This document shows, piece after piece, positions 15,663-64,000 of a DNA stretch of 64,000 nt. Every line of letters begins with the position of its first letter. Position 1 is the stretch's first letter. The DNA is from Thermoproteota archaeon (GTDB taxonomy: Archaea; Thermoproteota; Thermoprotei_A; Sulfolobales; Acidilobaceae), in NCBI GenBank assembly GCA_030549835.1, contig JAUQQR010000001.1, forward strand, positions 2,753 to 66,752, in the 5' to 3' direction. A program made the translations under genes and the position numbers. Under the pieces are notes generated by a model. That model worked only from the letters and a program-made list of their open reading frames with translations, had not been told where the DNA came from and did no database searches.

Positions 15663-15980
15663 CTAACCCTCAATAGTAACCCCCGCCCCCACCCCCTCTA
15701 AAGCAGAGACAAGTATACTAGCCATTTTAACAATACTAGACGAATCTGAACCCTCAATAGTAATAATCATTGAACCCTCAAAACCAACAATCAACTCACC
15801 CCTAGGCGGAGTTAACAGTAAAGAAACCTTAACGAGAACATCATCACAATTTGCTAAAACCCATGAAGCCTTCTCTACAACAATACACTGAGAATCCCTA
15901 AGAGACCTCGAAACCACCCTCAATAATCCAGGTATCTCTACAGGACTGGGAGTAAAAGCTCTAAACTGAACCCTATACAC
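15663..15980 (-). CDS. Hypothetical 105-aa protein (faint resemblance to Pcc1/KEOPS-type small proteins only)
   Basis: GTG start directly after the repeat copy. ITIEGSDSSSIVKMASILVSAL vaguely recalls the Pcc1 C-terminal helix. No firm motif. Confidence 0.35.
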   Translation of the reverse strand: MYRVQFRAFTPSPVEIPGLLRVVSRSLRDSQCIVVEKASWVLANCDDVLVKVSLLLTPPRGELIVGFEGSMIITIEGSDSSSIVKMASILVSALEGVGAGVTIEG

Positions 15981-16250
15981 CCCAATCCCCTCATCTCCTC
16001 TCTATTCTCTCTCCTCTCCTATCCCACTTACATTCTTTCTCTAAAGCTAACCGCACCTCTACTCTGTGCTTCGCCATGGCTACTATCCACTCCACACAGA
16101 GTCATGTGTATTCTTCTGAGCATAGCTGAGCAGAGCATGCATCTAACCTAGACCCTGGGGAGCTTAGAGCAATACCCCTCATTGCTCTTCAGACCCTTCC
16201 TAGGATAGGCTCATGAGTTAGAGCTTATAAACATTTCCTCGAGATATCAA
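15981..16250 (-). repeat. Diverged copy of the dispersed TATA-bearing repeat family, oriented toward the 105-aa ORF
   Basis: Blocks shared with 58729..58993 and the 44.7/45.4-kb arms: gaggaaatgtttataagctc, catgac..tgtggagtgg, gcgaagc and gagatgagg. Contains a perfect 8-bp hairpin (16166..16188) and a G-free C/T tract (15981..16045). Confidence 0.6.
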
Positions 16251-35682: not shown

Positions 35683-35726
35683 AGGGTTGATAGTTGCTTT
35701 GGTGCGTTAGGTTTATAAGGGTTTTT
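35683..35726 (+). repeat. 5' fragment of the dispersed repeat (includes its first TATA-like box), pointing antisense into the nrdJ 3' end
   Basis: agggttgatagttgctttggtgcgttaggtttataagggttttt matches the first 44 nt or so of the copies at 62518 and 58993 (reverse complement) with about 3 differences. It ends 3 nt from the nrdJ stop codon. Confidence 0.5.
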
Positions 35727-35731
35727 AGAGG

Positions 35732-38722: not shown

Positions 38723-39018
38723 TTAAACTATATTTAACGAAATACAGAGTCAAAGTAGAGTTAGAGAGTCTAGCGTATTTTTGCTTTGGTAACCGTATGT
38801 AAAAGACCATCTCTTCTCCTGCATCAACTGCCACATTTGTAGTAATAGCTAAGCTAATCTCCATACTAGTTATTTCATACTGCCTGGTAGCTATAAGACT
38901 ATCCTGAGATATTACCCACCAAAGGCCCCCTACTTAGATTAGCCACGCCCTATTCATAGGTATTACTAGCTAACTTTATAACTCCTATGGAACCTATTAT
39001 TATAGGGGTTAGTCCTTT

Positions 39019-44658: not shown

Positions 44659-44936
44659 GCCTAATGTAGCTGTCTCGAGTTTTATAGTTATTCATACTAG
44701 TTTATATCATTCTCCTGCTATAGAGGAAATCTCGTAAACTACCCCTACTATCCCTAATGCTGAGGGCCACCTGGTGAGAGAGTAGAGAGCTTATAAATGA
44801 AAGCCCTCCCCAAAGGGTAGCATTACTCAAAATGTGGAGTGTCCAGAGGCCACCCTAAAAGCCTCCAGAGGGTGATGCAAATCCAAGGCCAACGCAGGAG
44901 AATAAGAGATGAGGCGATGATATCAAAGCTGAATCC
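44659..44936 (+). repeat. Left arm of an 892-bp inverted-repeat cassette (a member of the dispersed repeat family)
   Basis: 29-nt perfect terminal match to the reverse complement of 45522..45550. A 57-nt near-identical core (44755..44811) contains gagagCTTATAAAtg. Further shared blocks run up to the ORF stop codon. Confidence 0.8.
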
Positions 44937-45261: not shown

Positions 45262-45550
45262 GGATTCAGCTCTTATATAGATTTATATCGGGTGATTTCA
45301 TAGCCTCATCCCTTGTTCTCCTGCATCCCGCTCGGGTTTTCATCGGGCTTAAGGGCGTTCAGGTGACCCCTAGGCACACCACATTTTAAGTATTCATAGA
45401 GAGCCACCCTAGGGGAGGGCTTCTATTTATAAGCTCTCTACTCTCTCATCAGGTGGCCCTCAGCATTAAGAATAGGTAGATATGGATTATAATCTTCAAT
45501 GATATAAACTAATATAAACATCTATAAAACTCGAGACAGCTACATTAGGC
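45262..45550 (-). repeat. Right arm of the inverted-repeat cassette
   Basis: Its reverse complement aligns block by block with 44659..44936: the 29-nt terminus, the 57-nt core at 45412..45468, aaaatgtgg.., gcaggagaa.aag.gatgagg, and agctgaatcc. Confidence 0.8.
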
Positions 45551-58728: not shown

Positions 58729-58993
58729 CCGTTTCCCATCCTAGGTTTTTGTATACTCCTAGGGTAAGTTGTGCCTCCTGCCCCGCGCTTCGCAGCTGCT
58801 ACCAAGCCACTCCACTCGGAGGTCATGGGAACCCTTCGAGCCCAACGGCATAAGGGCTTACATCTAATTTTTTATCCCTAGAATAGGATGAGAAATTAAA
58901 TCTTATAAACATTACCTCCCTAGTATAGTAGTACTTCTCCAAAAATCCTACAAAACCCTTATAAACCTAACGCACAAAACAGCTATCAACCCT
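58729..58993 (-). repeat. Full-length copy of the dispersed repeat, forming the leader directly upstream of the B3/B4-suhB-endA operon
   Basis: Its reverse complement is about 90 percent identical (by eye) to 62518..62699 apart from a segment of about 75 nt. It has two tttataag boxes and a GC-rich core. It ends 5 nt from the ATG at 58723. Confidence 0.75.
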
Positions 58994-62517: not shown

Positions 62518-62699
62518 AGGGTTAATAGCTGTTTTGGTGCGTTAGGTTTATAAGGGTTTTTGTAGGATTTTGGAAAAGTACTACTCTACTAGGGAGGTAA
62601 TGTTTATAAGCCTTATTCTCTCATCCTATCCTAGAGATAAAACTGCGAAGCTCGGAGCAGGAGGCACAACCCATCCTAAAAACCTAGGATGGGAAACGG
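62518..62699 (+). repeat. Short copy of the dispersed repeat with no ORF downstream
   Basis: Matches the reverse complement of 58729..58993 but lacks an internal segment of about 75 nt. Has tttataag boxes at 62547..62554 and 62603..62610. Ends in the hairpin cccatccta-aaaacc-taggatggg. Confidence 0.75.
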
Positions 62700-62987
62700 C
62701 TATTCTCAACCATGCCTAGAGCTTAAGAGTACTAGGCATGCTATATTCATGTATTATGCCTTCCACGGCTATCCATAGCCTAAGACTGGGCGCAGGGCTG
62801 AACTCAGTAAAAACTGGGAATGTAGCCCTAAACCTCTCCAGAACACTCACCCTTTAGGGCGGAGAGGAGGTCAGTCTTCCTATCTGAGACACATTATTAT
62901 ACTTGCTTTTCTAAGTATTTCAAGACTAGCTTTATAATAACTGCTAATAGCATTAAGTATTCGTAAAGTGGGGAGAGTTTGCTATGG

Positions 62988-63887: not shown

Positions 63888-64000
63888 AGAGTAGCACCTT
63901 TTTCTTAACAGCTCATCTGTCGGTTCATGTTAGTTTACATCACCATCTCTTTGTTAACCTCTAGTATCCACTTTAAAGTAATACTAAACGTTGCTCTCAT

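Follow-up and report, generated by a model that had tools for sequence, protein, structure and literature searches.

Dispersed GC-rich repeats of an uncultured Acidilobaceae archaeon are probably gene-less derivatives of an IS200/IS605-type insertion sequence

The GC-rich, TATA-bearing repeats dispersed through a 64-kb stretch of DNA from an uncultured Acidilobaceae archaeon (the window; 38% G+C) form a family which, with a probability that we put at roughly 80%, is made up of gene-less elements derived from an IS200/IS605-type (OrfB/TnpB) insertion sequence, of the kind described as PATEs and SMN elements. What is new here is the presence of such a family in this uncultured archaeon; the kind of archaeal mobile element is already known, and the family is not a new class of regulatory RNA. 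The only feature that is possibly new is a conserved and covarying hairpin that resembles a K-turn.

Proteins encoded in the window match metagenome-assembled genomes labelled Acidilobaceae archaeon. For comparison we used DNA of close strains, whose genes are 99–100% identical, and of genus-level relatives (~57% protein identity), the comparison loci together amounting to ~0.5 Mb. The copies of the repeat are named A to K; A, B, C and D lie in the window and E to K outside it. To make a family profile for nhmmer we used copies A, F, G, H and I, all five full-length, and left C out; extra copies were sought by scanning metagenome contigs with the signature GAGG-N5-6-TTTATAAG-N15-CTATYCTAG.

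Copy A (58729–58993, minus strand) is a full-length type I repeat of 265 nt, found by blastn and by nhmmer (E = 3e-92), with boundaries taken from the alignment of the copies. Copy B (62518–62699, plus strand; blastn and nhmmer) is a type I repeat with internal deletions. The initial annotation had estimated by eye that B is about 90% identical to A and lacks some 75 nt; blastn bears this out over 126 nt (90.5%, E = 1e-35) with ~74 nt missing, and adds a further 67 nt that are only 77.6% identical and a second loss of ~10 nt. B is without the tnpB-like core and the K-turn hairpin, and retains both TATA modules and the 3′ palindrome (62670–62693). Copy C (15981–16240, minus strand) is a diverged type II repeat without the 5′ module. 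Its similarity is significant: the profile that excluded C finds it at E = 7.9e-11, and the covariance model matches it at 16050–16146. On the minus strand it carries a BRE/TATA (16221–16240), an extra hairpin (16166–16188) and the K-turn hairpin (16052–16110). Copy D (35683–35731, plus strand; blastn and nhmmer) is a 49-nt fragment with the 5′ module only, 90–93% identical to the 5′ end of the family.

Outside the window, the signature scan recovered the orthologues of B, C and E and four new full-length type I copies, F, G, H and I, at other loci on metagenome contigs. Two more copies are J (L046:7492–7291, type II) and K (L066:885–1147, type I), and a decayed fragment of the family lies at L044:621–689. 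Copy E, a diverged type II repeat, is found just past the end of the window on the upstream flank of an IS607-family serine transposase gene (L006:3994–4641; NCBIfam NF033518, 227 bits) and in the opposite orientation to it. This gene lies just beyond position 64000 and adjoins the UbiA gene; no tnpB follows it. The family thus numbers at least 11 copies, seven of them outside the window at other sites in strains and metagenomes of the same lineage, and B, D, J and the L044 fragment are truncated.

The copies are of two types. Type I (A, B, D, F–I and K) has a ~105-nt 5′ module with a first TATA box, and type II (C, E and J) has no 5′ module and an extra hairpin. Type I copies are mutually 84–95% identical, and copy length is 182–266 bp. 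The GC enrichment that had first been reported is confirmed, with a core G+C of 0.53–0.60 against 0.38 in the window, and the reported order of motifs (TATA, ctatcctagg, ttagatg, catgac..gtggagtgg, gcgaagc) is present in A and C. The combination of GAGGnAAnnTTTATAAG, 15 nt and CTATYCTAG occurs three times with at most one mismatch, where ~0.5 occurrences would be expected even at three mismatches.

Of seven members originally listed, A, B, C and D are real. The two arms of a cassette, at 44659–44936 (plus strand) and 45262–45550 (minus strand), had been included and do not belong: they give no nhmmer match at E ≤ 1 and only 6.3 bits with the covariance model. A stretch at 38808–38851, put forward as a possible member, has no similarity to the family. 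The arms are similar to each other (82% identical over ~280 nt) and are a separate inverted repeat, outside the family. They surround an 84-aa ORF without a Pfam match, which has a MarR-like gene on one side and the L38e gene on the other. Both arms contain a TATA-like box, and a weak C/D-like motif (GCGATGAT..CTGA) is found at the inner end of each.

As far as sampled, the family is restricted to one lineage. It is absent from the ~86 kb of the comparison loci that come from four other genus-level relatives. A core-motif scan of a genome collection, apparently without the lineage of the window, returned five unrelated bacterial matches only; two pattern scans of viral contigs gave chance matches only, and a plasmid collection gave no match to the family.

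The evidence for a transposon origin comes principally from the core of the repeat. Positions 120–194 of copy A align, on the sense strand, with the 3′ end of the IS605 OrfB genes of the Sulfolobus viruses STSV2, STSV3 and STSV4, the identity to the STSV2 gene being 84% over 75 nt (blastn, E = 1e-11). The STSV2 OrfB protein is a TnpB (Pfam Cas12f1-like TNB and RuvC domains; NCBIfam guided_TnpB). The whole tnpB 3′-end homologue in A spans 58768–58867 on the minus strand, by blastn and by the covariance model (112.7 bits). In tblastn the STSV2 TnpB matches A at 58783–58857, in what read as decayed codons for ..KKLDVS..HDP.VEWL.., and it matches every type I copy that retains the core, always at residues 388–422. 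Copy I is the best preserved (70% over 33 residues, E = 2.6e-8); the others are frame-shifted, and in most copies the tnpB frame is broken by indels and stops.

The core of A also matches the annotated SMN2 element (“miniature non-inverted repeat”) of virus SMV1. The initial annotation had allowed that its finding would fail if the family corresponded to a known insertion sequence or MITE entry; given the matches to the IS605 OrfB/TnpB 3′ end (E = 1e-11) and to SMN2, the claim of novelty for the family falls. At the locus where STSV2 has its full OrfB element, STSV1 has a deletion derivative that keeps exactly the segment starting at TTAGATGTGAGCC, the same start as the family homology. This derivative (L068:100–430, compared with L064 of STSV2) is unannotated and lies between ORF53 and ORF52; what it retains is the left flank region and, from tnpB, the final ~125 nt, together with the right end.

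SMN elements, the Sulfolobus mobile non-inverted repeat elements, occur in plasmid pMGB1, virus SMV1 and S. islandicus; SMN1 is 320 bp long and depends on ISC1733, and SMN2 is probably mobilised by an IS200 transposase. The present repeats resemble them in size (250–320 bp), in having no terminal inverted repeats and no genes, or only small broken ORFs, and in that mobilisation in trans by an IS200/IS605-type transposase is thought for both. With SMN2 (251 bp in SMV1) they have in common the segment AGATGTGAGCCCCGTGCCGTTGGGCTCGAAGG..CCCATGACC (86.7% over 45 nt, E = 1e-4), and SMN2 also terminates in a palindrome and AAAC. The two differ in that there is no alignment outside a ~60-nt segment and the very end, that SMN2 has a plain hairpin where the family has the K-turn-like one, and that the double BRE/TATA 5′ module of the family is missing from SMN2. 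The host here also belongs to the Acidilobaceae, given as another order than Sulfolobales, and no mobility has been observed for the present family.

The ends of the repeats are consistent with this assignment. The palindrome at the 3′ end of A (58735–58765, minus strand) reads ACCCTAGG..CCTAGGATGGG and is followed by a terminal AAACGG, an arrangement that resembles a transposon right end; for the family as a whole the palindrome is CCCATCCTAGG..CCTAGGATGGG, then AAAC. Aligning the termini of six full copies as inverted repeats gives scores of 6–8, where shuffled sequence gives 6.5 ± 1.1, and none of the six is bordered by a direct repeat (2 nt or longer) that could be a target duplication. 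The suggestion of MITE-like mobile promoter-plus-leader modules appears broadly right to the extent that the repeats are probably transposon-derived and carry a promoter and an RNA module, and wrong as regards a classical MITE. The family is like the classical MITEs (Sulfolobus SM1–SM4), Correia and ERIC elements and the “putative mobile promoters” in being short, multicopy and intergenic, with promoters that can drive neighbours; classical MITEs and Correia elements, however, have terminal inverted repeats and target duplications, and the family has neither. A tRNA or SINE origin was discarded, ARAGORN finding nothing at the copies, as was a small protein: the ORF that starts in the second TATA box varies in length and frame among copies.

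PATEs are non-coding, have near-terminal palindromes and are without terminal inverted repeats or target duplications; they may retain disrupted C-terminal tnpB coding remnants and often encode omega RNAs that require TnpB in trans. The repeats share with these IS605/IS1341-derived elements of Haloquadratum and Geobacillus stearothermophilus the lack of terminal inverted repeats and target duplications, the near-terminal palindrome and a length too short to code, and, with some of them, C-terminal tnpB remnants with disrupted ORFs. The correspondence is not complete. The left-end palindrome and conserved targeting oligonucleotide of PATEs are not found here: on the 5′ side there is only a weak candidate hairpin around the second TATA box, type II has no 5′ module, and no known transposon left end could be matched to the 5′ module. 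There is no conserved 4–6-nt targeting sequence (TAM) at the 5′ boundary, where the left flanks differ (..tattt, ..cgtga, ..tgtag, ..atatt, ..aggct, ..attat); this would be less surprising if an IS607-type serine transposase had moved the copies. The copies also have canonical archaeal promoters ahead of the omega-RNA-like part, and no parent insertion sequence was found. Neither tnpB nor a Y1 tnpA was found in the window or in the ~0.5 Mb of comparison loci, in which tblastn with the STSV2 TnpB finds remnants only, and a search with the remnant peptide among 5.8 billion proteins recovered only another copy of the element (K).

Two promoter-like elements precede the core in A. The upstream TATA module (TATA1; 58951–58973, minus strand), with the octamer TTTATAAG at 58958–58965, is part of the 5′ module common to A, B, D, F–I and K and is a putative promoter by its consensus. 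The second, a BRE/TATA (TATA2; 58896–58918, minus strand), reads GAGGTAATGTTTATAAG, with the TATA at 58902–58909; its GAGGnAAnnTTTATAAG does not vary across the two types. In the tRNA and gene promoters of the window, 23–27 nt separate the TATA octamer from the start. Applied to TATA2, this spacing predicts a start in A ~23 nt downstream of the box, at GGGAUAAAA, where the tnpB homology begins. Invariant columns make up 80–85% of the promoter part and 50–65% of the RNA part; a better-conserved promoter is not what one would usually see where selection acts on the RNA alone.

The predicted RNA contains a long hairpin, P2-P3-P4, at 58771–58832 in A (minus strand), with a UGGA, a C-stem hairpin, a 3-nt bulge (UGC) and a GAAG. 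The core folds in the order P2, internal loop, P3, UGGA, C-stem hairpin, 3-nt bulge and GAAG (z = −3.6). Measured over 13 variants, which include three tnpB 3′ ends of Sulfolobus viruses, pairing is 93.4% in P3 (the lower helix), 92.3% in the C-stem and 84.6% in P2, and the compensatory exchanges include CG to UA and UA to AU in either direction. The GA of the non-bulged strand and the GA of the bulged strand are invariant in all 13 variants; the bulge is 3 nt long in every one, and position 3n is G in 11 of them. A K-turn is defined as a 3-nt bulge with tandem G:A/A:G pairs between canonical and non-canonical helices. At the level of the sequence the core hairpin conforms to this definition and is a candidate for binding L7Ae. 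No link of TnpB guide RNAs to K-turns or L7Ae appears in the literature that we searched.

These properties could be taken to mean that the repeats are host sRNA genes that bind L7Ae through the K-turn and have nothing to do functionally with transposition, the similarity to tnpB being incidental or due to capture. Such RNA genes would account for the K-turn-like motif with its invariant GA/GA core, 3-nt bulge and helices 92–93% paired with covariation, and for the promoter that each carries; many archaeal RNAs are bound by L7Ae. In Sulfolobus viruses, however, the motif is part of the coding sequence at the 3′ end of intact tnpB genes, and therefore it came with the transposon. The copies moreover decay, the hairpin being lost in B and J, and they show no C/D boxes, no H/ACA pocket or ACA geometry and no match in Rfam. 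We regard this explanation as very unlikely, and we gave up an early view of the repeats as K-turn sRNAs standing on their own once the tnpB homology had emerged.

The known classes of small RNA were considered individually. A C/D box sRNA should have a C box RUGAUGA and a D box CUGA near its ends, guides of ~12 nt and a length of 50–70 nt; no RUGAUGA occurs in the copies, and no C/D match in Rfam rises above noise. As an H/ACA sRNA the fold has the K-turn-bearing upper stem only, with an internal loop of ~5 × 5 nt, and the ACA is missing in C, B and F. The comparison with Rfam that the initial annotation had proposed matched no family: a search of the whole window at gathering thresholds returned three tRNAs and noise only, and permissive searches with A, B, C and the cassette arms found nothing above noise.

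If the repeats descend from a TnpB element, the core has a ready counterpart in the TnpB guide RNA (omega RNA or reRNA; sotRNA in haloarchaea). In S. islandicus an reRNA overlaps the IS605 tnpB in sense, extending from the coding region across the right end, and the family core, like the reRNA of TnpB7 there, has its origin in the 3′ end of the tnpB ORF and the right end. The RNA predicted here is structured too, with helices kept by covariation. In contrast to these RNAs, no copy of the family has a tnpB in cis, the right-end motif is GGGAAAC(GG) where S. islandicus IS605 has TTCAC, Rfam models do not recognise the family, and the K-turn-like motif has not been reported for such RNAs in the literature searched.

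It is conceivable, although we think it rather unlikely, that the copies are active orphan omega RNA genes with promoters of their own, which would work with a TnpB or a nuclease-dead TnpB-like protein encoded elsewhere, use their 3′ flanks as guides and together make up a dispersed trans-acting set. In favour are the homology to the omega/reRNA scaffold, at whose very start a canonical BRE/TATA is positioned, and the helices, which compensatory changes have preserved though the ORF has been destroyed; the omega RNAs of PATEs, according to the literature, must act with TnpB in trans. Against this, no tnpB was found in the DNA searched, the core or a helix has been lost in several copies (B and J; H1 in F), conservation is lower in the RNA part than in the promoter part, and no TAM-like flank is conserved. 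In its most ambitious form, the proposal would be that the guide RNA of a crenarchaeal TnpB clade (STSV1, STSV2, STSV4 and the Acidilobaceae family) contains a true K-turn, which would make L7Ae a candidate cofactor of the TnpB-omega RNA complex, and that the promoter-equipped, gene-less copies are live trans-acting guide genes or domesticated regulators, not dead relics; to this we would give little credence at present.

The surroundings of the copies bear on a different possibility, that the repeats are a family of cis-regulatory leaders or mobile promoters selected to control the genes downstream, comparable to a riboswitch or a Correia element. Copy A fills the divergent intergenic space between a signal peptidase gene and the B3/4-SuhB-EndA operon, which includes the tRNA-splicing endonuclease, and its 3′ end lies 5 nt ahead of the B3/4 ATG; no other promoter is evident for this operon. 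The purine-rich tail of copy C terminates at the GTG of a 105-aa ORF. Thus, of the copies that had been described as ending at start codons, A and C do so. At the ribonucleotide reductase gene (nrdJ) the opposite is seen: D adjoins its stop codon, antisense and directed into the gene. The 105-aa ORF (15663–15980, minus strand) belongs to no Pfam family; its first codon, GTG here, is ATG in an orthologue from a metagenome (L040), and this agrees with a real start.

Two abutted start codons, together with promoter modules that are the best-conserved part of the element and the existence of “putative mobile promoters” in prokaryotes, speak for selected leaders or promoters. The placement of the whole family does not. 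The repeats had been said to lie usually in sense upstream of genes, yet only four of the 11 (A, C, I and K) share the orientation of the gene that follows. The other seven have no sense gene downstream: D is antisense, and B (which faces the UbiA gene), E, F, G, H and J each converge with their neighbour. The genes that follow the copies are not related to each other. Nor is the element conserved where a leader should be, since it is missing upstream of the B3/4 orthologue in four genus-level relatives (L013, L016, L059–L062 and L063), where a simple TATA ~30 nt upstream is used; in L013 and L063 that orthologue is preceded by a 115-nt spacer with a plain TATA. A conserved leader or riboswitch was rejected on this absence in other genera and on the lack of any match in Rfam, and we consider selected control of downstream genes unlikely in general.

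Two other GC-rich stretches were noticed near these loci. Immediately downstream of B, positions 62700–62900 (plus strand) are GC-rich, strongly structured and non-coding (minimum free energy −66.1 kcal/mol, z = −3.7), with a perfect 9-bp hairpin at ~62711–62741 and a multi-branch fold at ~62780–62880; the stretch is 97.6–98.9% conserved between strains and has only a weak HgcC-like match in Rfam (14.9 bits, E = 0.56). The promoters of B may drive it as an ncRNA in its own right. In one genus-level relative a different GC-rich unit lies upstream of the B3/4 gene (L059:150–450 and L061:1330–1750), in the intergenic space that A fills in the window. The unit is tandemly duplicated in L061, is dissimilar to the family and has C/D-box-like motifs (GUGAUGC .. 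CCGA .. GAUGAGG .. CUGA); its only match in Rfam is a weak sR47-like one (14.7 bits).

The copies were also compared between strains. Looking for presence/absence polymorphism, as had been proposed, revealed none for A, B, D and E in as many as 10 strains, D being fixed in 10, so that mobility is a matter of historical inference. Flanking genes and other non-coding DNA are 97.6–100% identical between strains, against 87.7–96.3% for A and 93.4–94% for B, and within strains whose flanks are 99–100% identical A and B differ by 4–12%. The differences have sharp boundaries and form mosaic patterns that resemble other copies. This mosaic excess of divergence indicates gene conversion between copies, although part of it could be assembly noise at repeats in metagenome-assembled genomes. 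In one assembly (L046:9700–10090; GCA_038867435.1) synteny with all other strains breaks exactly inside A, and the 5′ end of the element and everything upstream come from another locus, one that carries a gene for a tRNA-binding protein and a cluster of ribosomal protein genes. Recombination between copies or a mis-join at the repeat may account for this.

The explanation that best accommodates these results is as follows. A full copy of ~265 bp consists of a ~105-bp 5′ module with a TATA box, a second canonical BRE/TATA and then ~150 bp whose probable source is the final ~35 codons of tnpB together with the right end of the transposon, a stretch which in intact elements encodes the scaffold of the TnpB guide RNA (omega/reRNA); the near-terminal palindrome and AAAC(GG) close the copy. 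The copies would have spread in the past through a transposase acting in trans, would now be fixed, and appear to have been homogenised and reshuffled by gene conversion. Each would be transcribed from its own TATA2 into a structured, omega-like RNA of ~150 nt whose long hairpin contains the K-turn-like motif. Where a copy abuts a gene, as A does the B3/4-SuhB-EndA operon and C the 105-aa ORF, it would supply the only evident promoter, and a convergent copy would give rise to antisense read-through.

For annotation, GC-rich intergenic islands with TATA boxes such as these would be explained as the remnants of transposons and not as a new class of regulatory RNA. For the biology of the genome, they suggest that the ends of TnpB elements, stripped of their genes, can persist as promoter-carrying units that exchange sequence with one another and drive or oppose the genes beside them. 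Should the K-turn-like hairpin prove real and the orphan copies turn out to be expressed, they would link archaeal guide RNAs to L7Ae and would be guide RNAs encoded apart from their nuclease.
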